Part shown: positions 5,627 through 50,607 of the stretch, piece by piece
Position numbering within the stretch: the first letter of the stretch is position 1
Layout of the letters: every line of letters begins with the position of its first letter
Assembly: GCA_965223705.1 (NCBI GenBank)
Contig: OZ245015.1
Location: forward strand, 2,272,001-2,336,000
DNA: 64,000 bases
Reading direction: 5' to 3'
Source of the DNA: Myxococcota bacterium
GTDB lineage: Bacteria; Myxococcota_A; UBA9160; UBA6930
Notes under the pieces: generated by a model
What the model saw: the letters and a program-made list of their open reading frames with translations, nothing else
Databases searched by the model: none
What the model was told of the DNA's origin: nothing
Program-made: the position numbers and the translations under genes

Positions 5627-6814
5627 ATGCGAGGGGGCGGCGAGGCGGCGCGTAGTCCGCGCGAAGGGTCGCGAGCGTGGCTCGCCGACCAACCGGCGAT
5701 TCGGCGCGAGATCGAGCGGGATCGCTCGATCAAGCTGCGCGTGCGGGCCCGGGTATTCCTCAGCCTGGGCCCCTTGGTCTTCATGAGCTTCTGGGGCCTC
5801 GATTGGCTGATCGCGCCCGAGCTCGCCCCTACGTTCCTGTGGCTGCGGCTACCCGTGCTGCCGCTCAGTTTCGTCGGTTTTGCGCTCTCCTTCTCGGACC
5901 GGTTCGACAGCGGAATCCGTGTCTTCTCGGCGGCTGGGATCTGCTGGGGAGCCTTCGCGGTCTCGATCATCGCCGCGATGACGGGAGGCTTCGAAGCGAC
6001 GTACATCACGGGCGTCGTCCTCATCCAGATCGTTCCCCTCTTCCTCCCCTTCCGGCCCTGGGCGATTCTCTTGCTCGAAGTCGCCATCGTCGCCGGGCAC
6101 GTCGCCATCAACCTCGCGTTCCATCCCGCCGATGGATCGATGCTCGAGCCCGTGCTCTTCCTGCTCGCCGCGTCCGTCCTCGTACTGGCGGTCGCCGTCC
6201 TCTCCGAACAAGCGCGCATCCAAGAGGGGGTTCACCGCTATCGGCTCGCCGAAGCGAACGAGGAGCTCGAACAACTCGCCGGCCTCGATGCGCTGACGGG
6301 TCTCGCGAATCGCCGGAGCTTCGATTCCGCACTCCTGCGAGAGTGGCGGCGCCTCAGTCGGTCGAAGCATCCGCTCTGCGTGGTGATCTGCGATGTCGAC
6401 CACTTCAAGGACTACAACGACCACTACGGGCATCCCGCCGGCGACGCGTGCCTACGGAAGGTGGCGCAGTTGATTCGAGAGTCCCTGCATCGACCCTCCG
6501 ACGTGGCGGCCCGCTACGGCGGCGAAGAGTTCGCGGTTTTGCTCCCGGAAGTGGATATCGCCGGCGGCGTCGCCGTCGCCGAGCGAATTCGCGATGCCGT
6601 CGAGTCGCGGAGCCTCCGCCACGAGACCGCTGCGCGAGGCGTTGTCACGTTGAGTCTCGGCGTGGCGGCGCTGATCCCCGATTCGACGCACTCGCAAGCG
6701 AAGCTCGTCGAGTCCGCCGATCGGGCGCTCTATGCGGCGAAGGACCGAGGTCGCAACCGCGTCGAATCCGCCGCTGCCGGCCGGGGGCGACGACTCGCCC
6801 TCATCCAGAGCTAG
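5627..6814 (+). CDS. membrane-bound diguanylate cyclase (GGEEF)
   Basis: Several N-terminal TM helices; DALTGLANRR, DVDHFKDYND, RPSD I-site and GGEEF. Confidence 0.92.
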   Translation: MRGGGEAARSPREGSRAWLADQPAIRREIERDRSIKLRVRARVFLSLGPLVFMSFWGLDWLIAPELAPTFLWLRLPVLPLSFVGFALSFSDRFDSGIRVFSAAGICWGAFAVSIIAAMTGGFEATYITGVVLIQIVPLFLPFRPWAILLLEVAIVAGHVAINLAFHPADGSMLEPVLFLLAASVLVLAVAVLSEQARIQEGVHRYRLAEANEELEQLAGLDALTGLANRRSFDSALLREWRRLSRSKHPLCVVICDVDHFKDYNDHYGHPAGDACLRKVAQLIRESLHRPSDVAARYGGEEFAVLLPEVDIAGGVAVAERIRDAVESRSLRHETAARGVVTLSLGVAALIPDSTHSQAKLVESADRALYAAKDRGRNRVESAAAGRGRRLALIQS

Positions 6815-7968
6815 AGCGGCGCTCCTCGACTCTCGCCGGTCAGGCGCAGCCGGCCCATCGACTCGTAGTTGCCCTGGGCGATCTGGATGTGCTGGGTGGC
6901 GGTGTGAATGTCCCGCCAGTGGCGCTGCAGGGGGTGCGTCGAGAAGATCGACGACGTGCCGGCCGCGGTGTAGAGGCGATCGATGGCCTCAGCCGCGGAG
7001 GCTGCGGCGTGACAGCTCGCGAGCCGGGCGCGGCGACGGACCTCGATGCTGGCTGTCCCCACTCGTTCCACTTCATCCCACAGCGCCTCGGTGGTTTCGA
7101 AGACGTAGCTGCGAGCCGAGCTCACCAGAGCTTCGGCCTTCGCAAAATCGATCTGAGCGGACGGCCGCTCGGCGAGGGAGCCGCTGCTCTGGGCCGGTAC
7201 TTTGCGTTCGGCCAGTTGCTGAAAGCTTTCGAGCGCGGCTCGAGCGATACCGAGTGCCACGGCGACGACGCAAGGCGGAAAGAGCGTGACGATCGGAACG
7301 CGGTAGAGCGTGGTGTCGACGGCCGGTGGATCGGCGAGTGTGACCCAGCGTCCTTCGGGAACGAACGCCTCGCGAACCTCGACGTCGTGGCTGCCCGAAC
7401 CGCAAAGCCCCACGACATCCCACGTGTCATGGATCGCGACGTCTTCGCGCGGGAACATGGGGAGGAGTACTTCGGGGCTGTCGGAGTTCCCGTCCCCTCC
7501 CCCCTCGATGACCACCGTGCCGAGCAGCCAGTTCGCGCCGGGGCAGCCCGAGGCGAAGCGCCAGCGTCCACTCGCCACCAAGCCGCCATCCACCCGTCGG
7601 GCGCTCCCGGTGAGGGCGAGCACTCCGGCGGGAACGGCCGGCTCTGGGCCGGCGAAAATGGATTCGCCCCAGTGTTTCGGCAGGATTCCCGAGACCAGCG
7701 CCGTCGTCTGGTAGTTCATCAAGACCCAACCGGCGGATCCGTCGCCGTAGGAGATTTCCTCGACGACGCGCAACGTGTCGAGCGCGTGGCTTTCGAGTCC
7801 GCCGTAGACCTTGGGCACCGCCATCTGTACGAGTTCGTCTTTGACGAACGCGCGGACAATGTCGTCGGGGAGTCGGCGCGCTTCTTCGAACTCGAGGGCG
7901 CGCGCTGCGAGTTGCGGGGCGAGCCTGCGCGCCGCGGCGAGCTGCGGGTCGCCGCCCTCAGTCGGCAT
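6811..7968 (-). CDS. acyl-CoA dehydrogenase-fold flavin-dependent hydroxylase (HsaA/IacA-like)
   Basis: GSAGW, SGRWRFASG, DTWDVVGLCGSGSHD and LQRHWRDIH motifs; ATG at 7968. Confidence 0.88.
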   Translation of the reverse strand: MPTEGGDPQLAAARRLAPQLAARALEFEEARRLPDDIVRAFVKDELVQMAVPKVYGGLESHALDTLRVVEEISYGDGSAGWVLMNYQTTALVSGILPKHWGESIFAGPEPAVPAGVLALTGSARRVDGGLVASGRWRFASGCPGANWLLGTVVIEGGGDGNSDSPEVLLPMFPREDVAIHDTWDVVGLCGSGSHDVEVREAFVPEGRWVTLADPPAVDTTLYRVPIVTLFPPCVVAVALGIARAALESFQQLAERKVPAQSSGSLAERPSAQIDFAKAEALVSSARSYVFETTEALWDEVERVGTASIEVRRRARLASCHAAASAAEAIDRLYTAAGTSSIFSTHPLQRHWRDIHTATQHIQIAQGNYESMGRLRLTGESRGAPL

Positions 7969-42931: not shown

Positions 42932-44454
42932 CAGCTGTCCCTCGAGAGTTCGGCGACGGCCTGCTCACGCAGCACGCGCCGCAACATTTTTCCGGTCGGG
43001 TTGCGCGGCAACTGCGGCACAAAGAGGAAGTTCTTGGGAACTTTGAAGGGAGCGAGGCCGTCGCGACAGTGCCGATCGAGAGCTTCCGAGTCGAGCGTGC
43101 CCTCGCTGACGATGCACGCCACGACGCGCTCACCCCAGCGCTCGTCGGGAATACCGACGACGGCGCTCTCGATGACGCCGGGGAACTCCGAGATTCTCGC
43201 CTCGATCTCCGCGGGGATGATGTTCACGCCCCCCGAAAGGATCATGTCTTTGCTTCGACCCACGATATAGAGGTAGCCCTCGTCGTCGATGCGCCCGAGG
43301 TCTCCGGCCGTGAGCCACTCGCCGCGGCGGATCGCGGCAGTCGCTTCGTCCTGCTTCCAATAGCCGTTGAAGTGATAGGGCGACCGCGTGTAGAGCTCGC
43401 CGGTTTCGCCGTCTGGAAGACGCTTGCCCGCCTCGTCGAAGATGCCGATCTCCGTCCATGGGAACGGCAAGCCGACGCAATCGGTTTTCCGCAGCTGATC
43501 GGGCGGCCGAAGATTCGAGACGATCCCTCCCTCGGTCGAACCGTACGCCTCAAAGAGTCGCCCTGGGCCCCACTGTGCGACGATGCGTTCCTTGTCGCGT
43601 TGCGGGAGGGGCGCTGCGTTGGAAATGATCACGCGAAGATCACTCAGCGGATAGCGATCGAGGGTCGCTTTCGGCAGAGCGAACAGAGCACTGACGTGAG
43701 TGGGTACCACGAACACGTTGCTCGCACGCGTTGACTCGAGGGTTTGCAGAAGGCCTTCGGGCTCGAATTTGGGCGTGATCGTGACGGTGCCGCCGAACAG
43801 CAGTGGCGCCACGCCATAAGCGAAGCCGCCTCCGTGATAGAGCGGTGCCGTCGCCACCGTGTGGTCGGATGGCCCGAAACAGCCGTACTCCCCCGCCATC
43901 GCCATAAACGTGAGGGTCCGCGAGCGGTGCGAGAGCATCACGCCCTTCGGTTTTCCGGTGGTGCCCGACGTGTAGGAGATCGCGAAGGTGCTTTCTTCCG
44001 AAACGTCGGGCAGCGCGGCTGTCGCGCTCGCCTTCTCGCGCCATGCGTCGTAGGTCGACCCGATCACGAAGACACGCTCGGGATCGATCCCGCCCGCCTC
44101 GCGCGCGGTCTCCTCGCAGGTAGGGTGGACAAAGAGCGCGTGTGAATCGCTGTCTTCGAGGATGGCACGCAACTCGGGCGACGTGAGATGCGGATTGGCG
44201 GTCACCACCGCCAGGCCGGCGCCGGACAAACCCGCAACGAGCTCAACGTACTCGAGGCAATTCGGTGCGAGCAGCGTGACATGGCTACCGGGGCTGAGGC
44301 TTAGCGCGCCCGCTGCTGCGGCGACGCGCCGGATGCGTTCGCCGAGTTGCCCGTAGCGGAGCGACTCACCCTCACAAACAATCGCCAGGTGTTCCGGGTC
44401 TCGACCGGCCGCGCGCAACAGCCCGTTCGGCAGTGTGAGACCGGCTGCATTCAC
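42931..44454 (-). CDS. acyl-CoA synthetase (AMP-binding enzyme)
   Basis: YTSGTTGKPKG, YGSTE, GDLG, GRSKDMI and PRNPTGK motifs; GTGA overlap with the upstream gene. Confidence 0.92.
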   Translation of the reverse strand: MNAAGLTLPNGLLRAAGRDPEHLAIVCEGESLRYGQLGERIRRVAAAAGALSLSPGSHVTLLAPNCLEYVELVAGLSGAGLAVVTANPHLTSPELRAILEDSDSHALFVHPTCEETAREAGGIDPERVFVIGSTYDAWREKASATAALPDVSEESTFAISYTSGTTGKPKGVMLSHRSRTLTFMAMAGEYGCFGPSDHTVATAPLYHGGGFAYGVAPLLFGGTVTITPKFEPEGLLQTLESTRASNVFVVPTHVSALFALPKATLDRYPLSDLRVIISNAAPLPQRDKERIVAQWGPGRLFEAYGSTEGGIVSNLRPPDQLRKTDCVGLPFPWTEIGIFDEAGKRLPDGETGELYTRSPYHFNGYWKQDEATAAIRRGEWLTAGDLGRIDDEGYLYIVGRSKDMILSGGVNIIPAEIEARISEFPGVIESAVVGIPDERWGERVVACIVSEGTLDSEALDRHCRDGLAPFKVPKNFLFVPQLPRNPTGKMLRRVLREQAVAELSRDS

Positions 44455-45104
44455 CGAATGCCCCGGGTGTTGTCGCCGGGCGGGTCGTTCGGGCCTTCCC
44501 GCCAACCGAAGGCGAGCTCGCGCCAGAGGTCGCGGTAGTCGTAGTCGGTGTTGAGCGCGAGGTTCAGGCGGTTGTAGGACGCGAAGTCGCTGACGACGTG
44601 GGTCAGCTGAACGATCCCTCGATCTCCGAGACCGATTCCACGGAGTGCCTCGACCTCTGCGTCGGTCACGGACGCCGGGTCCTCATTCACGTGCAGTGCG
44701 TAGCCAAGGATTGCCTTGAGCCGCGGGTCGTCGACGGCATCGCTTCCCTTGGAAACGAAATCTCGCACCGTCGTCTCCGGTGTGCCCATGCCGTAGCTGA
44801 GAATCGTGCAGAATGCGGCTGTGCAATACGGGCAGCCGTTCGCTTGGGAGACGGCGATTCCCACGTGCTGGATCTCCGCGAGTGTGAGCTCACCCGCGGA
44901 CCAGAGGACGCGTGTGGCGCCGAGCTTGGCCTTGAGGAACTCCGGGAAGTTCAACTCCACCCGGAAGTGGTTGGGCACCGCGCCCTCCATCTCCGTAACC
45001 CACTCGAAGATGGCGCGGATCTCGGGATCGTCGGTGTCTGCGTCGGGCAGTGCCACGCGCGCTTTTCGGTCCTGCTGATCGGCTGCCAACGGGTGTTCCT
45101 CCAA
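44451..45104 (-). CDS. AhpD/CMD-like peroxidase-related protein
   Basis: VSQANGCPYC motif, GAVPN and NRLN. Confidence 0.78.
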   Translation of the reverse strand: MEEHPLAADQQDRKARVALPDADTDDPEIRAIFEWVTEMEGAVPNHFRVELNFPEFLKAKLGATRVLWSAGELTLAEIQHVGIAVSQANGCPYCTAAFCTILSYGMGTPETTVRDFVSKGSDAVDDPRLKAILGYALHVNEDPASVTDAEVEALRGIGLGDRGIVQLTHVVSDFASYNRLNLALNTDYDYRDLWRELAFGWREGPNDPPGDNTRGIR

Positions 45105-45107
45105 AGA

Positions 45108-45953
45108 CTAGTCGCGCGCAGCGACCCACTCGAGCATTTCCTGGAACTTCGCGGCGCCGTCCGCCAGCGTGGCCTTCAAATCGGTCAGCTCTTGGTAGAA
45201 CGTCGCGTCGGACGCTTCTTCCAAGGCAAGGCCCTCGGCGTACGTTCCCAAGGCGCCGCCGTCGATCAAGCTTTTGTACCGCTTCACCATCATCGGGTGG
45301 TTGCGCGACATCATGCGCGCGATCTCGACGCTCTCGCGATCGAGGGTTTCGTTGTCTGGGAATACCTGCTGTACGAGTCCCCATGTGAGCGCTAGGTCCG
45401 CTTCGATCGGAAAAGAACTCATGGTGGCGAATTTCGCATTGTTGACGCCGCAGAGATGAATCAAGCGCTGGGACAACCGGCGGCCCGGATGAACGCCGTA
45501 CTTCGCATGGTTGTCCATGAAGACGGCGCGTTCCGAAGCGAGCAAGACGTCGCAGGCCGTCGCGAGCTCGAACCCGCCGGTTACCGCGGGCCCGCCCACT
45601 GCGCCAATCACGGGGAACGGGCATTCCCAGATGGCTCGCCACGGGTCGTTCTTTCCCGACACACCGCCGGCAAAGTATTCGTCGAGGTTGCCGACGTCGA
45701 GGCCGACGGCGAAGCCACGGCCTTCGCCGCGTAATACGATGGCGCGTACTTCGTCGTTGTTCGGGTCGGGGTCGAGCCGATCGCTCAGCGCGTTGAAGGC
45801 CTGCGCCGTGGCCTGCATCAAGGCGACGCTCATCGTGTTGAAGGTGTCGGGGTTGTTCAGCGTGACGACGTAGATGCCTTCATCGCCATCGATCCGGTCC
45901 ACGAGCACGTCGTCATTCGGGCCGTAAACCGCCACCCGAGTTCGGTCCGCCAT
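45108..45953 (-). CDS. enoyl-CoA hydratase/isomerase family protein
   Basis: FAVGLD, PVIGAVGGPAVTGGFELA and CD motifs; GGAGG RBS before ATG 45953. Confidence 0.88.
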   Translation of the reverse strand: MADRTRVAVYGPNDDVLVDRIDGDEGIYVVTLNNPDTFNTMSVALMQATAQAFNALSDRLDPDPNNDEVRAIVLRGEGRGFAVGLDVGNLDEYFAGGVSGKNDPWRAIWECPFPVIGAVGGPAVTGGFELATACDVLLASERAVFMDNHAKYGVHPGRRLSQRLIHLCGVNNAKFATMSSFPIEADLALTWGLVQQVFPDNETLDRESVEIARMMSRNHPMMVKRYKSLIDGGALGTYAEGLALEEASDATFYQELTDLKATLADGAAKFQEMLEWVAARD

Positions 45954-46014
45954 GAGGGGCACCTCCGTTCACTCGAAGCGAAGCTTAGCGTCGCTCGGGC
46001 CCCTAAAAACGCAA

Positions 46015-46045
46015 ACAGCCGGAGCTGGGAACCAGCTCCGGCTGT
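46015..46045 (-). terminator. intrinsic terminator closing the collagen cassette
   Basis: 14-bp perfect stem ACAGCCGGAGCTGG/CCAGCTCCGGCTGT followed on the minus strand by TTGCGTTTTT. Confidence 0.7.
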
Positions 46046-46087
46046 CGATGTCGAAGGTCGCGCCGAGGGGCGCGATGAACTGTGGCG

Positions 46088-46624
46088 TTAGTCCGGGATT
46101 GCGTAAGCGCACACGCCCTTGTTGATCATCCGTACGACTGCGTTTTGGTGGTCGGGGTTGCTCGTGAAGTCGTTGTCCTGGAACTTCACCAGCACCTCGG
46201 GCATACCGCCCTGGAAGCCCGAGCGGATGATCAGACTCGAGGTTTCGTCGCAGAGCCAATTCGGCTCGGTGGAGTTGTTGAGACCCTTGAACCCCATGGT
46301 CGCAGTGCAGATGTGATTCTGCTTGATCGAGCTAAACGACTGATAGCTGAGAACTTTTTGACCGTACGGCGGGACGACAAACGAATCGTAGGCCACCGGG
46401 GTTTCCGTCTCGGTATTGATAATCGTCAGATTCGTTTGGACCGCGTAGTAGCCGGGATTGGTCACGATGCACTGACCCGTGCCGATGTAGTCAAGCTGCA
46501 ACGGGTGCGTGGCTAGTATGGGAGTCTGGAAAAAATACTCGGCCGATGCCGGCATTCCGAACAGGAACGCCGCTGCGAACAAAGCCGCTAAAAATCGCTT
46601 GCGCATATCTTTCGTCCAATTCAT
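46088..46624 (-). CDS. secreted hypothetical protein with 4 mature-region Cys (paralogue A of 47892-48392)
   Basis: Sec-type signal ending PASA; AAAGGAGG RBS; clear alignment to 47892-48392; alternative start ATG 46606. Confidence 0.8.
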   Translation of the reverse strand: MNWTKDMRKRFLAALFAAAFLFGMPASAEYFFQTPILATHPLQLDYIGTGQCIVTNPGYYAVQTNLTIINTETETPVAYDSFVVPPYGQKVLSYQSFSSIKQNHICTATMGFKGLNNSTEPNWLCDETSSLIIRSGFQGGMPEVLVKFQDNDFTSNPDHQNAVVRMINKGVCAYAIPD

Positions 46625-46666
46625 TGGGTCCTCCTTTCACCCTCCGCACGTAGTTGTATCACACCG
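46625..46666 (-). repeat. copy 1 of a 42-nt upstream element (promoter/leader) shared with 48411-48452
   Basis: 37/42 identity by manual alignment; identical core CGTAGTTGTATCACACCG. Confidence 0.85.
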
Positions 46667-46788
46667 GCAAAAAGCCGTGTAAGAAACCGATGACGTTTTG
46701 TGATAATTCGCCCTGCCCCGAGGGGGCAGTCGCTCCTCCAGATGGGTCTGGCGTACTTCGTCCCCGTGGCGACCTCGCGCGACCGGGT

Positions 46789-47382
46789 TCACGATGGACT
46801 CGGACGGCGCCCGAGGATCCAGGAGACGCACGACTTCCGGACGCCCCGGGTTATCGGGGTCACCTGGTGGAAGAGGTGCGAGGGAAAGACGACGACACTG
46901 CCCTGCCTGCGCGCCGGAGAGAGCTCGTAGGGATTGCCTTCAGCATCGGAGATCATGAGCAGCCCGCCCTCGTACGATTCCGGGTCGGAGAGGGAGAGAG
47001 TGCTACTCACGACGCGGGTCAGCCCCTGCTCCGAACCCGGGTCGACCGTATCATGATCGTCGTCCGCTGAATCGCGGTGCCACCCATAGAACTCGCCTTC
47101 ACCGTAACAGCCGTACTGAACGCCTTGGGAAACCTCGACTTCGAGCTGCCAATATTCACGATTCGCCATGGCGGCGTAGTGAGTCATCAAGCCGTTCACC
47201 CAGTGCCAGACGTCCCAGAACGCCACACTCGCGTCGCGAAGCTCGGTGTCGACGGTGTACCCGCTCTCGCGTCCGACGGTGCCCCGGGCGGCCTCCATGG
47301 CATCGCCCTCTTCGACGATCACGTCGCAGACTTTCGCGGGAATGACGCCGTCGAAGATGTGGTAGAGCGGGAGTTGACGCAT
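46789..47382 (-). CDS. 2OG-Fe(II) oxygenase, prolyl 4-hydroxylase/PKHD-like
   Basis: YGWHRD (HxD), YEGG, VFPS..HQVTP (distal His), RKS.V.W (2OG-binding Arg); no signal peptide. Confidence 0.88.
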   Translation of the reverse strand: MRQLPLYHIFDGVIPAKVCDVIVEEGDAMEAARGTVGRESGYTVDTELRDASVAFWDVWHWVNGLMTHYAAMANREYWQLEVEVSQGVQYGCYGEGEFYGWHRDSADDDHDTVDPGSEQGLTRVVSSTLSLSDPESYEGGLLMISDAEGNPYELSPARRQGSVVVFPSHLFHQVTPITRGVRKSCVSWILGRRPSPS

Positions 47383-47438
47383 GAGGTTCCGTACCCCCCA
47401 AGTTTAGCCCCGGTCTTACCCCGGTCGTTTCGCAGGCC

Positions 47439-47493
47439 GCGAAACGAAAACCGCCGGGGCGCCTTGCAGCAGCCCCGGCGGTCTTCGTTTCGC
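47439..47493 (-). terminator. terminator/stabilising hairpin immediately after the collagen-like gene
   Basis: 22-bp inverted repeat with 1 mismatch; the minus-strand 3' arm ends TTTTCGTTTCGC. Confidence 0.75.
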
Positions 47494-47883
47494 CTATTCC
47501 GGGAACCCGGGTTCGCCGGGCGGGCCCGGAGGACCGGGCGGGCCGGGATCACCCGGGTCTCCCTTCGGACCCGGCGGACCAGCCGGGCCGGGGATCCCGG
47601 GATTTCCCGGGTCTCCCTTCGGCCCGGGGTCGCCCGGTAGTCCCGGCTTGCCGGGAAGGCCCGGCTTACCCGGCTGACCGGCCGGCACCTGGGGCCACCA
47701 CGCGTTGCCCGCGCGGGCCGGTTTGGAGGAAAGCGCAATCGCTGCGGAAACGATCGGCGTCACCCACATCGATCCGATCACGCCGGTGGCGAGAATCCCC
47801 GACACCTTGCGGCGCGTCATGCGCTGTTCGCCGGTCGCGTCTTCCTGCTTCAACTCGTCGACTCGGTGGTCTTTGTCACGCAT
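47494..47883 (-). CDS. small collagen-like protein with twin-arginine-type leader
   Basis: TRRKV + hydrophobic stretch + PARA cleavage-like site, then 20 uninterrupted Gly-X-Y triplets to the C-terminus. Confidence 0.85.
47500..47679 (-). repeat. (Gly-X-Y)20 collagen-coding repeat
   Basis: [60 protein letters not shown]; synonymous codons vary, so selection acts at the protein level. Confidence 0.93.
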
Positions 47884-47891
47884 AGACCGAC

Positions 47892-48392
47892 CTACGCGTC
47901 ACATCGCGGGAAGATGCCCTGGTTGATCAAGTTCCCGAGACCGTCGGTACGGATCGGGTCATTCGTGTAGAGATTGTTCCAGAACTGCAGCCGAATTGGA
48001 GCGAGTGCCGAGGGCACCATGGGCACTTCGTAGGGCCCCGGGACGCAGTCGCCATTCGTCTCCGTGTTGTTCGTCTGCGGCGAGGCCACGCAGAAGTGAT
48101 TCACGAGCTGCGCGGTCAGTGCCTGGTAGGAGAGAACCGCTTGGCCATGGCCCGGGACGAGCACGTCGTCGCTGGCGACGACGGTGTTGGTGACCGCATT
48201 GATGATCGCCAAGTGGGTGGCAACCGGGCTTATGCCGCCGTTGTTCGCGATGCACTGTGAGATGCCGATGTAGTTCAAGGGGAGCACACCGGTAACCAGT
48301 GCAGGCGTCTCGTAGACGGTGTTCGTGGCCGCCGCCGACATTCCCATCAAGAGGAGCGCCGCACACGCGACGCCTGAGATTCGTTTGAGCAT
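47892..48392 (-). CDS. secreted hypothetical protein with 4 mature-region Cys (paralogue B of 46088-46624)
   Basis: Sec-type signal ending SAAA; shares TP.L.T, YIG..QCI..N, IIN, VP..GQ.VLSYQ, NH.C, N.TE.N..C and IN.G with paralogue A. Confidence 0.8.
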
Positions 48393-48410
48393 CCTTTGTT
48401 CCGATCCTGC

Positions 48411-48452
48411 TGGGTCCTCCCCTCACCCTCCCGGCGTAGTTGTATCACACCG
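48411..48452 (-). repeat. copy 2 of the 42-nt upstream element
   Basis: TGGGTCCTCCCCTCACCCTCCCGGCGTAGTTGTATCACACCG versus the copy at 46625-46666. Confidence 0.85.
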
Positions 48453-48521
48453 CCTAAAGGCAGTGGGAGAAAGCCGTGTCATCTCAGCGGCGTTTTTGAG
48501 CGCCCCCCTAGGGGGGCAACC

Positions 48522-49319
48522 CTACGCGTCGAGTTCCTTCAGGAACGAACGCAGGTCGTTGTTGAAATCCGCCGGGCGCTCGAGCTGATAGAAATGCCCG
48601 ACATCTTCGACCACCTTGATCCTGGCGCCCGGAATGTTGTCGGCGAGGAACTGGTTGGCTTCGAGGGGCGTCGCCTGATCTTCAGCGCCCGCGATCACGA
48701 GGGTCGGCTTCGTGATCTCGCCGAGACGATCGCTGATGTTCCAGTTGAAGACGCCGCTCGGGTCTCCCGCCGATCCGCCGAAGGTGGCTTCGGTGAAGTT
48801 GTCGTCGACCATGAAGTAGCCGACCAACAAGTCCATCAGCTCGGGCTTCTGCTGCTTGCTCTTGGCGGAGAGCGCTCCTTCGAGCAGGCCCGCGAAAGCG
48901 CCGCGCCAGTCCTGCGCGAAGGCTTCTCCGGCTTCCGGCGGCATCCCCGCCGCGAGGTTCGTGCCACTGCTCAGAATGAGCGTGCCGCGGACGCGCTCAG
49001 GCGCGTCGAGATTGACCTGCATGGCGATCATGCCACCGATCGAGTTGCCGACGAGGACGGCTTGATCGATGCCCGCATCGTCGAGCACGGCGACGACGTC
49101 GGCCGCTTGCTCCTCGATCGCGAAACCCGCGGCGGGCTTGTCCGAGCGCCCGTGGCCGCGGTGGTCAATGATGATGCACTGATGTTGTTGCGCGAATGCG
49201 AAGGTCTGGAAGTGCCAGATGTTGGCGTTCGTCGAAAACGGGTGAAGGAACACGATGGGTGAGCCTTGACCGTAGGACTCGTAGTAAACCTGGACGTCGT
49301 TTCGCTTTACGTAGGGCAT
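48522..49319 (-). CDS. alpha/beta hydrolase (enol-lactone hydrolase-like)
   Basis: DHRGHGRS, GNSIGG, PTLVIAGAED and GH motifs. Confidence 0.88.
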   Translation of the reverse strand: MPYVKRNDVQVYYESYGQGSPIVFLHPFSTNANIWHFQTFAFAQQHQCIIIDHRGHGRSDKPAAGFAIEEQAADVVAVLDDAGIDQAVLVGNSIGGMIAMQVNLDAPERVRGTLILSSGTNLAAGMPPEAGEAFAQDWRGAFAGLLEGALSAKSKQQKPELMDLLVGYFMVDDNFTEATFGGSAGDPSGVFNWNISDRLGEITKPTLVIAGAEDQATPLEANQFLADNIPGARIKVVEDVGHFYQLERPADFNNDLRSFLKELDA

Positions 49320-49393
49320 GGAAGTCTCCTCAGTGGGTTGACGGGTAGGCGGAAGGGTATCAGGTCCGAGCTCTCGGGCGGAGGTGTCTTCTC

Positions 49394-50281
49394 CTAGAAG
49401 GACGTTCCGTACTTCCCGGAGTCTCGCAGGTCCCAGTAGCGGCGATCCAGTTCTTCGGTGATCGGTCCCGGAACGCGCCCGTGGAGGGGCCGTCCCGAGA
49501 TTTCCCGCACCGCCAAGGCGCCGCCGGCGGTGCTGGTCGTGAAGATCTCCTCCGCACTGAAGGCGTCGAAGGGCGACAGATCACAGGCTTCCACCTCGAT
49601 CCCGGCTTCCCGGGCGAGTTCGAGAAACGTCGCCCGCGTGATGCCTTCGAGGATCCCCTTCTTCGGCGTGCGCAGTCGCCCCTGATGGACGAGGAAAATG
49701 TTCGACGCCGGTCCTTCGGCGAGATAGCCGTCCGTCGAGAGCCAGACGACATCGTCGTAACCGGCGTCGAGCGCTTCGATTTTCGCGAGCTGAAACGACA
49801 ATCGGTCGAGGCACTTGTAGCGAGGATCCAGGGTGTCCGGCCGGAAGCCACGACCGGATGCGACATGCAAGCGGATGCCCTGGGCACGCTTCTCTTCGTC
49901 CGCCAGAAACACATAGGGCGCCGCCCACACGATGACGGTCGGGTCGACGACCCGAGGGTCCGCGACGACTTCGCGCGATACGCCGCGTGTCACGATGACG
50001 CGTACGCTGGCGTCTCGAAGCTCGTTCCGGTGCAGCGTTTCGATAATGACGTCCTGCCACTCAGCGCGGCGGAGAGGCTGGCCGAGCCGGGTGGCCTGCA
50101 GCGACTGTTCCAGGCGGTCGAGGTGGGCATCCAGCCGAAAGAGCGAGCCTTTCCAGGCGGAAACGACATCGAATACGCCGTCTCCGAGGAGGAAACCCTG
50201 ATCGAGCACCGAAATATGAGCCTCCGACAGCGGCCGGTAGGCTCCGTTGATGTAGAGGATCGGCTCCTCGTTCATCGTCAT
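49394..50281 (-). CDS. class IV aminotransferase (branched-chain/D-amino acid aminotransferase fold)
   Basis: DQGFLLGDGVFD, HLDRL, EGPASN, LEGITR and TSTAGG motifs. Confidence 0.9.
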   Translation of the reverse strand: MTMNEEPILYINGAYRPLSEAHISVLDQGFLLGDGVFDVVSAWKGSLFRLDAHLDRLEQSLQATRLGQPLRRAEWQDVIIETLHRNELRDASVRVIVTRGVSREVVADPRVVDPTVIVWAAPYVFLADEEKRAQGIRLHVASGRGFRPDTLDPRYKCLDRLSFQLAKIEALDAGYDDVVWLSTDGYLAEGPASNIFLVHQGRLRTPKKGILEGITRATFLELAREAGIEVEACDLSPFDAFSAEEIFTTSTAGGALAVREISGRPLHGRVPGPITEELDRRYWDLRDSGKYGTSF

Positions 50282-50607
50282 CCTCCGCTCGACGGCGCTT
50301 TGTAGTCGATCGATTGCGCCACCTTCATGGCGGCGACCGCCTCATCCATCGAGTACAGCGGCGTCACGAACGTGTTTCCAACATCGCCGGCGACATCCGC
50401 CATGGCGACGGCCATGGCGTGCACATCGCTTTCGAGCTCGACGATGATGACGGCGTCCCACTCGCCAAACGTGAAGTAGAAATCGACCAGCCGTCCGCCG
50501 AGTTTCTCCATGATGACACTCGCCTGGGGGATGCGGTCCTGTGGGTTCGAAACGAGGCCCCGCGTGCTCGCGACGTTGTATTTGATTTGGATCATGAAGC
50601 GACGCAT
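50278..50607 (-). CDS. GYD domain protein
   Basis: LGGRL..FYFTFGEWD pattern. Confidence 0.8.
   Translation of the reverse strand: MRRFMIQIKYNVASTRGLVSNPQDRIPQASVIMEKLGGRLVDFYFTFGEWDAVIIVELESDVHAMAVAMADVAGDVGNTFVTPLYSMDEAVAAMKVAQSIDYKAPSSGG

Follow-up and report, generated by a model that had tools for sequence, protein, structure and literature searches.

Collagen prolyl 4-hydroxylases (P4Hs) target the motif X-Pro-Gly. Bacterial collagens, in the available sections of one review (PMC8968730), are taken to be free of hydroxyproline and to be stabilized by other means; hydroxyproline synthesis is described there as beyond most bacteria, and the bacterial collagen pattern as one with proline mostly in the X position of the G-X-Y triplet and threonine in Y. 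The same sections report that the P4H of Bacillus anthracis (BaP4H) hydroxylates (PPG)n peptides in vitro and acts on X and Y prolines. In the accessible part of their 2010 paper, Iyer, Abhiman, de Souza, and Aravind (PMC2938197) predicted the hydroxylation of bacterial collagen-like proteins by co-encoded 2-oxoglutarate (2OG) dioxygenases, in operons that combine collagen-like or tail-collar proteins, 2OG dioxygenases of the Asp-beta-hydroxylase and PhyH families, and sulfotransferases. Our searches of open-access papers and preprints returned reviews only and uncovered no bacterial collagen-like protein reported to contain native hydroxyproline. Here we describe a four-gene islet from a Myxococcota bacterium (assembly GCA_965223705.1), which lies in a stretch of 64,000 nucleotides (nt), positions 2,272,001 to 2,336,000 of contig OZ245015.1, referred to below as the window. 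The islet encodes a collagen-like mini-protein with a predicted export signal and proline in most of its Y positions, a 2OG-Fe(II) oxygenase with a predicted prolyl-hydroxylase fold, and two paralogous, putatively secreted proteins, A and B; we tentatively propose that it makes a hydroxylated mini-collagen.

A mini-collagen with proline in the Y position

The islet consists of four open reading frames (ORFs) between 46088 and 48392, all co-oriented on the minus strand in the order B, collagen-like gene, oxygenase, A:

47892..48392, minus strand: gene B, 166 amino acids (aa); signal peptide ...MSAAA/T; four Cys in the mature part; A/B beta-sandwich family
47494..47883, minus strand: collagen-like mini-protein, 129 aa; PF01391; 20 G-X-Y triplets
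46789..47382, minus strand: 2OG-Fe(II) oxygenase, 197 aa; PF13640; H102-x-D104...H172...R182-x-S184
46088..46624, minus strand: gene A, 178 aa; signal peptide ...PASA/E; four Cys in the mature part; paralog of B

An earlier annotation made from the letters and translations (the sequence-only reading) had proposed four co-oriented minus-strand genes here, namely, a collagen-like gene, a 2OG-Fe(II) oxygenase with an HxD...H...R motif, and two secreted 4-Cys paralogs, with a terminator behind the last of them. Each of these elements was confirmed by the results given below, and the ATG of the collagen-like ORF lies 8 nt after the stop codon of B.

The collagen-like ORF matches PF01391 (E 6.8e-11, 42.2 bits against a cut-off of 27.2), and its 20 triplets all begin with Gly, without interruption. 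Because four Gly codons (GGT, GGC, GGA, and GGG) are used in phase, the periodicity appears to be kept at the level of the protein and not by a DNA repeat. A six-frame scan of the 4.56-Mb genome found four runs of at least seven GXY triplets, three of which are collagen-like genes; the GXY run is not a chance feature. At its N-terminus, the protein has a charged stretch of 21 residues and M-T-R-R-K; these are followed by a hydrophobic segment of 27 residues with an A-R-A site behind it, leaving a mature part of about 72 residues in which the triplet region ends in (GPP)3-GEP-GFP-E. Neither inspection of the sequence nor Pfam profiles found a globular domain in the 129-aa protein.

Of the 20 triplets, 17 have proline in the Y position and 7 have it in X. 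The bias is reversed in the other two collagen-like genes of this genome, with Y=Pro in 10/24 and 3/24 triplets and X=Pro in 14/24 and 16/24; in the product of each, the N-terminal part is IPT/TIG-like and the C-terminal part globular, and there is no oxygenase gene near either. The mini-collagen also contains two GPK, two GKP, four GDP, and one GNP triplet. The third collagen-like gene of the genome (G000:C1:2211155-2212018, minus strand) encodes a signal peptide and an IPT/TIG-like part, then 24 triplets, and lastly a globular part at the C-terminus, and no A/B-domain or oxygenase gene was found beside it.

It is highly improbable that the collagen-like ORF is non-functional, that is, an unexpressed remnant or a frame miscalled in GC-rich DNA. 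Its Shine-Dalgarno sequence is weak, its leader has no homologs, and the exact protein, tried in four candidate forms, has no match in a collection of 15 billion proteins in which A, B, and the oxygenase are present; the gene may be unannotated or differently called in the public record. A word-index search with residues 1-70 of the peptide likewise returned nothing, the peptide itself included. These points are countered by the 20 in-phase Gly residues with their four codons, the PF01391 match, an export signal in frame, a GC content at third codon positions (GC3) of 0.77, as in neighboring genes, and the position of the ORF, 8 nt behind B and directly ahead of a strong hairpin.

The peptide is predicted to carry an export signal. 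The sequence-only reading had assigned it a Tat leader and had proposed that the peptide is hydroxylated, folds or trimerizes before export, and leaves the cytoplasm through Tat in the fashion of a ribosomally made peptide that is modified after translation (RiPP), with A and B as extracellular assembly or anchoring factors. T-R-R-K-V, the hydrophobic stretch, and A-R-A are all present, but T-R-R-K-V-S in the leader gave no match to the TAT-signal profiles (TIGR01409 and PF10518, from Pfam and NCBIfam) at E values up to 5-10, bearing in mind that profiles often miss such short signals. The usual Tat motif is S/T-R-R-x-F-L-K, whereas here the arginine pair is followed by K-V-S. The twin arginine is a fact; from the sequence, the leader could equally well be a Tat signal, a Sec signal, or a signal anchor, and a hydrophobic stretch of this length would suffice to anchor the protein in a membrane. 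We regard the complete scheme of cytoplasmic trimerization and Tat export as very unlikely. The RR pair in the n-region, the two tatC genes of the genome, and a comparable charged leader with RR on a peptide encoded near an oxygenase homolog (locus L009, described below; weak alignment to the mini-collagen leader, E 6e-4) speak for it. However, the substrates of prolyl hydroxylases are unfolded chains, a state that is compatible with Sec too; Sec export of unfolded hydroxylated chains fits equally. The RiPP comparison also fails to extend beyond the oxygenase: the cassette has no leader peptidase, cyclase, or other RiPP enzyme, and no protease, RRE-domain protein, or transporter is encoded in or beside it.

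An oxygenase with a predicted prolyl-hydroxylase fold

The oxygenase matches PF13640 (E 5.9e-15, 56.4 bits against a cut-off of 27) and is encoded by the sole PF13640 gene of the genome. Residues H102, D104, H172, and R182 are invariant among 24 homologs, and the protein has no signal peptide. Its structure was modeled with a pLDDT of 89.8; the best Foldseek match of the model is the Pseudomonas putida P4H bound to EF-Tu (4iw3; E 2e-12, TM score 0.76, 22% identity). The Foldseek matches listed are prolyl hydroxylases, PiuC, and the putative Shewanella oxygenase 3dkq, and they include the Chlamydomonas P4H with (Ser-Pro)5, the PBCV-1 collagen P4H (vCPH), and Dictyostelium and human PHD2. In sequence searches, the C-terminal half matched PiuC-type hydroxylases (3e-11) and the N-terminal half the Chlamydomonas P4H (8e-6). 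The best family match is PHROG 61 (phrog_61; E 3.3e-32, a profile without a curated cut-off), which covers the full length (residues 5-192); relatives at about 33-35% identity occur in 255 phage records, mostly of cyanophages. Taken with the model, these data characterize the oxygenase as a predicted cytoplasmic enzyme with a prolyl-hydroxylase fold and a complete Fe/2OG site.

In this genome, the lone PF13640 gene adjoins the one collagen-like gene that is rich in Y-position proline. The chance that the sole PF13640 gene lies one gene from one of the three collagen-like genes is about 0.002, for an estimated gene count of about 4,000 and with the pair picked post hoc.

A rare secreted domain family

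A and B share 36% identity (E 2e-26). Both start with a signal peptide of Sec type, and the mature part of each contains four Cys, of which two are conserved throughout the family and the other two are specific to A and B. Neither protein matched Pfam, NCBIfam, or PHROGs, and a word-index search with A returned A alone. When 1.84 billion representative proteins were searched with a profile of the A/B domain, 13 matched at E<=0.001; besides A and B, these include one that corresponds by eye to another ORF of this genome (P0020, the L094 ORF) and one of 317 aa that is probably a third (P0016, the L003 protein). The genome has five copies of the domain.

The 317-aa paralog joins an A/B domain to a DUF1554/endostatin-like C-terminal part, and its gene lies directly downstream of a 406-aa collagen-like gene with an IPT/TIG-like N-terminus and 24 triplets (L003 859-1812 and 1967-3187; G000:C1:1863787-1866115). 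Endostatin is known from animals as the domain at the C-terminus of collagen XVIII. Two of the five A/B-domain genes therefore adjoin two of the three collagen-like genes, an arrangement with a chance of about 1e-5 (about 4,000 genes estimated). Of the evidence for a joint action of the A/B domain and collagen-like proteins, we consider this adjacency the best. Judged by sequence, A and B belong to a very rare, putatively secreted domain family tied to collagen-like genes, and the adjacency suggests that they may be assembly partners of the collagen. The two remaining paralogs (L004 913-2055 and L094 1270-2358) have in common a domain of about 170 aa at the C-terminus, for which Pfam gave no match; one of them adjoins a group-1 glycosyltransferase gene.

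The model of A has a pLDDT of 72.6, with values of 89-96 in its beta-sandwich core. Its fold matches are generic beta-sandwich and jelly-roll proteins (TM1070, the best, Z 8.4; GOLD domains; carbohydrate-binding modules; TNF-like lectins) and include clostridial collagen-binding domains at Z 6.5-6.6; the matches being generic, no assignment of A was made from them. A search of the ESM Atlas gave unnamed clusters only, and a complex prediction for B and the mature collagen peptide scored 0.00, which gives no verdict.

Transcription units and genomic setting

The following features lie between and around the four genes:

47439..47493, minus strand: very stable hairpin just 3' of the collagen-like gene; 22-nt arms, 95% complementary
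46713..46729, minus strand: small GC hairpin CTGCCCCCTCGGGGCAG after the oxygenase gene; part of the minimum free energy (MFE) fold of 46700-46790
48503-48516: its counterpart, CCCCCCTAGGGGGG, in front of the upstream element of B
46014..46046, minus strand: intrinsic terminator after A; 15-pair stem, then a T-run
46625..46686, minus strand: upstream element of A, ending in GGAGGACCCA right before the ATG; copy in front of B
48411..48472, minus strand: upstream element of B; copy of the element of A

The hairpin behind the collagen-like gene has an MFE of -51.9 kcal/mol (z -6.77), and none of 200 shuffled sequences was as stable. It is likely a terminator or a 3'-end stabilizer that parts a B-collagen unit from the oxygenase gene. 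The stretch 46700-46790, taken as a whole, folds no better than shuffles.

The elements upstream of A and B form a 62-nt direct repeat that is 82% identical and has an exact 18-nt core, compared with about 55% identity (by eye) in the coding sequences; the 17-mer of the core occurs in the genome at these two places alone. Since the RNA folds of the two elements are no better than shuffles (z -0.75 and -1.6), we read them as a promoter or untranslated region (UTR) acting at the DNA level and not as a riboswitch. A search of 44000-50500 against Rfam gave two sub-threshold chance matches and nothing else, with none in the upstream elements. The repeat is probably a dedicated shared promoter or operator, or a 5' UTR, and would place A and the B-collagen unit under common control. 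On these features, the likely transcription units are B with the collagen-like gene, the oxygenase gene, and A. The cassette of the sequence-only reading holds as a gene order, and its genes probably form several units rather than one.

The cassette is flanked by genes for an alpha/beta-hydrolase (48522-49319) and an enoyl-CoA hydratase (45108-45962). GC3 is 0.75-0.82 in the four cassette genes and 0.78-0.83 in the flanking genes; because of this similarity, the four genes look native and translated, not like recent imports or noise. The setting is chromosomal, and family-profile matches revealed no phage genes around the cassette. Cassette and both flanks are contiguous in contigs assembled from three runs, which represent two samples of one study and possibly the same source material. 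In the second sample, single-nucleotide polymorphisms inside coding sequences occur at 46582 and 47182, both synonymous (n = 2, a weak hint). The window and the public-run contigs also differ by single-base lengths of G/C runs at two non-coding positions, 46625, just upstream of the ATG of A, and 48511, in the hairpin before the upstream element of B; these are likely homopolymer noise or strain variation. In two genomes of the same genus, the flanking hydrolase and enoyl-CoA hydratase genes are found on separate short contigs, with other neighbors.

Homologous loci and the possibility of unrelated neighbors

We compared the neighborhoods of 160 oxygenase homologs, comprising the best 80 of 548 bacterial loci in species-representative genomes and 80 viral loci. 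The closest homologs (P0003, 52% identity, and P0004, 48%) form a clade with the window protein (support 97) in an open polytomy.

Several relatives have proline-rich neighbors. At 10 of the 80 viral loci, a Pro-type collagen-like ORF lies upstream on the same strand, a count for which there is no background rate to compare; Y-Pro exceeds X-Pro in five of the ten, whereas the remaining five, among them three near-identical loci, do not show this excess. The viral contig L095 carries the nearest tree relative of the window oxygenase with a known context, and here the oxygenase gene comes third, behind a G-x-P-rich collagen-like gene of 583 aa and a DUF6065-like gene, in that order. At locus L145, a fiber gene with 36 triplets (Y=Pro in 13) ends where the oxygenase gene starts. 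In Azospirillum melinis (L008 4943-7969; oxygenase 35% identical), the oxygenase gene lies 15 nt after a gene whose product has a PGFY/PSY-rich tract at its start. The pair belongs to a tight four-gene operon, which encodes this protein, with RTX repeats and DUF5648 in addition to the tract; the oxygenase; a 216-aa protein without a family match; and a DUF6065-like protein, the last two genes overlapping. The DUF6065-like proteins of L008 and L095 are homologous (E 2e-23); such a partner occurs at 1 of the best 80 of 548 bacterial loci and at 4 of the 80 viral loci, and is absent from the genome described here.

In a metagenome-assembled genome (L009; oxygenase 40% identical), a 141-aa peptide with a charged N-terminus and an RR leader is encoded 150 nt downstream of the oxygenase (6720-7145) and contains four D-S-D-x-G-P-N-A-D-like repeats. 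A DUF1554/endostatin-like protein is encoded upstream at the same locus. The repeats bear on a different chemistry, in which the oxygenase would modify Lys in G-P-K, Asp or Asn in G-D-P and G-N-P, X-position Pro, or A and B themselves. The mini-collagen has triplets of all these kinds, as counted above, and, according to the available sections of the review (PMC8968730), prolines in X as well as in Y are hydroxylated by the P4H of B. anthracis. Against this, those structural neighbors of the oxygenase whose chemistry is known are all prolyl hydroxylases, and neither A nor B has a Pro-rich tract; we consider an alternative chemistry on the cassette proteins quite unlikely.

Two sets of candidate neighbors were rejected. 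Pro-rich same-strand ORFs at 44 bacterial homolog loci were spurious GC-rich frames only, and GERGEY-repeat ORFs at 20 of the best 80 of 548 loci, from Caulobacterales, are the tails of zinc-ribbon proteins on the opposite strand. In the latter arrangement (L036 5168-5518 and 19 other Caulobacterales loci, in Phenylobacterium and Caulobacter), the gene for the small zinc-ribbon protein and that for a PiuC-like hydroxylase are divergent; the zinc-ribbon protein has a linker rich in Pro and Ala and a tail of the form (GERGEY)n.

The comparative evidence is mixed, and other observations weigh against a link between the oxygenase and the mini-collagen. The oxygenase was found in none of 40 relatives at E<=1e-10. 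The A/B domain was absent from all 192 other genomes of the order and from the 160 oxygenase-homolog loci, the peptide leader gave chance-level matches alone in the 192 genomes, and metagenome scans with the oxygenase subclade and with the A/B-DUF1554 subfamily found no relative. The best 80 of 548 bacterial loci include no credible Pro-rich collagen-like ORF, and their contexts vary, with TonB receptors and assorted enzymes; 70 of the 80 viral loci also lack a collagen-like neighbor of the kind described. On a tree of 110 oxygenases, the collagen-neighbor trait is unclustered, with three changes, no better than shuffles. The conserved synteny of oxygenase and collagen genes that the sequence-only reading had anticipated in other genomes is thus borne out in part, by the ten viral loci, and not by the bacterial ones; the cassette itself was not found elsewhere. 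It is a singleton among the data searched, and we read it as a lineage-specific islet for an exported mini-collagen.

Features of the locus and the enzyme point the same way. The strong hairpin between the collagen-like and oxygenase genes argues against a single operon. The NCBIfam PKHD models NF003972-NF003975 match residues 90-189 alone and stay below their threshold (best 69.2 bits against a cut-off of 143). The 2OG-binding position is R182, in R-x-S, which aligns with the Arg of PiuC and Sbal_3634. Collagen-type P4Hs (animal C-P4H, Cr-P4H-1, vCPH, and BaP4H) bind the C5 carboxylate of 2OG through a Lys; Arg is of the PHD/PKHD type. Because its 2OG residue is the Arg of RxS, we classified the oxygenase by its prolyl-hydroxylase fold and not as a member of the collagen-P4H family.

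These findings would suit neighbors that are functionally unrelated, the oxygenase being a PiuC/PPHD-like hydroxylase with another substrate (perhaps a housekeeping one, such as EF-Tu in Pseudomonas) that happens to lie in a lineage-specific gene patch. The top structural match is the EF-Tu prolyl hydroxylase, with PiuC next, the RxS motif is of the PKHD type, a hairpin parts the two genes, and the homologs have heterogeneous contexts and no clustering of the collagen-neighbor trait. This explanation deserves serious weight, yet it leaves several facts aside, and on balance we find it doubtful: the sole PF13640 gene adjoins the only Y-Pro collagen, identity to 4iw3 is only 22%, the absence of the oxygenase from the 40 relatives misfits a housekeeping role, and several relatives lie in tight operons with Pro-rich repeat proteins.

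Proposed mechanism and significance

The reading we tentatively favor is that the islet makes an exported mini-collagen hydroxylated at its Y-position prolines, on which A and B act outside the cell. The cytoplasmic oxygenase would hydroxylate the Y-position prolines (X-Pro-Gly) of the still-unfolded peptide. The hydroxylated chains would then be exported via Sec or Tat, with the signal cleaved or kept as an anchor. Outside the cytoplasm, they could zip into a triple helix of about 17 nm, nucleated at the C-terminal (GPP)3 cluster, and hydroxyproline would supply the stability that a short collagen without globular domains would otherwise lack. A and B, as probably co-regulated beta-sandwich proteins with two predicted disulfides, may bind, cap, or anchor the collagen extracellularly. 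A more specific version, in which the A/B family replaces a trimerization or anchoring domain in trans for a native, hydroxyproline-stabilized mini-collagen of a free-living bacterium, with a logic like that of animal collagen with its P4H and NC domains, is unlikely as it stands.

Hydroxylation of the peptide, which the sequence-only reading had proposed, is plausible and testable. The support is circumstantial and comes from the fold, the sole PF13640 gene, the Y-Pro neighbor, and the Pro-rich neighbors of some relatives; no outside confirmation was found. The small size of the peptide and the single 197-aa chain of the enzyme make the claim readily testable. If it is true, a native bacterial pair of P4H and collagen would change the view that bacterial collagens are free of hydroxyproline, and it would provide a compact two-gene route to hydroxylated recombinant collagen, for which the biomaterials field now uses foreign P4Hs. 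It would also be relevant to how collagen hydroxylation arose, an idea put forward in the accessible part of PMC2938197. The A/B family, whose putatively secreted domain is very rare and associated with collagen-like genes, is a separate question in its own right.

Comparison with known systems

The closest solved structures are those of PPHD (4iw3) and PiuC/YbiX, with TM scores of 0.76 and about 0.6, and the RxS 2OG motif is common to them and the window oxygenase. Unlike in PPHD and PiuC settings, no TonB receptor or iron-uptake gene lies beside the window oxygenase. The cyanophage and pelagiphage oxygenases of PHROG 61 are its best full-length family match, and some of these are encoded behind collagen-like fiber and DUF6065-like genes; the window oxygenase, in contrast, is chromosomal and belongs to a genome without a DUF6065-like gene.

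The enzyme vCPH acts on (P-A-P-K)n-like repeats. PBCV-1 vCPH (5c5t) and the mimivirus collagen hydroxylases resemble the islet described here in that one genome encodes both a small P4H of a single domain and targets that are Pro-rich or collagen-like. However, vCPH ranks only 14th among the Foldseek matches (TM score 0.68, 16% identity), and its host is eukaryotic.

Another parallel is offered by BaP4H and the BclA-type exosporium proteins of B. anthracis, where, as here, a monomeric oxygenase of P4H fold and collagen-like proteins occur in the same genome. The BaP4H chains and the window oxygenase gave no sequence match at E<=1, and the window enzyme differs in its setting, beside the gene for a 129-aa collagen without a globular domain. 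We know of no instance in which BaP4H is encoded beside its presumed substrate, nor of native hydroxyproline shown in BclA.

The sequence-only reading did not recognize the arrangement as a described system. This is not wholly so: the accessible part of PMC2938197 already predicted hydroxylation by co-encoded 2OG dioxygenases, albeit of other families. The islet departs from the operons described in that part: its enzyme belongs to the P4H/PKHD type (PF13640), it lacks a sulfotransferase, and it includes a new family of secreted proteins. What is particular to this locus is the combination of a mini-collagen without globular domains, an extreme bias toward Y-position proline relative to two controls in the same genome, and the orphan A/B family.

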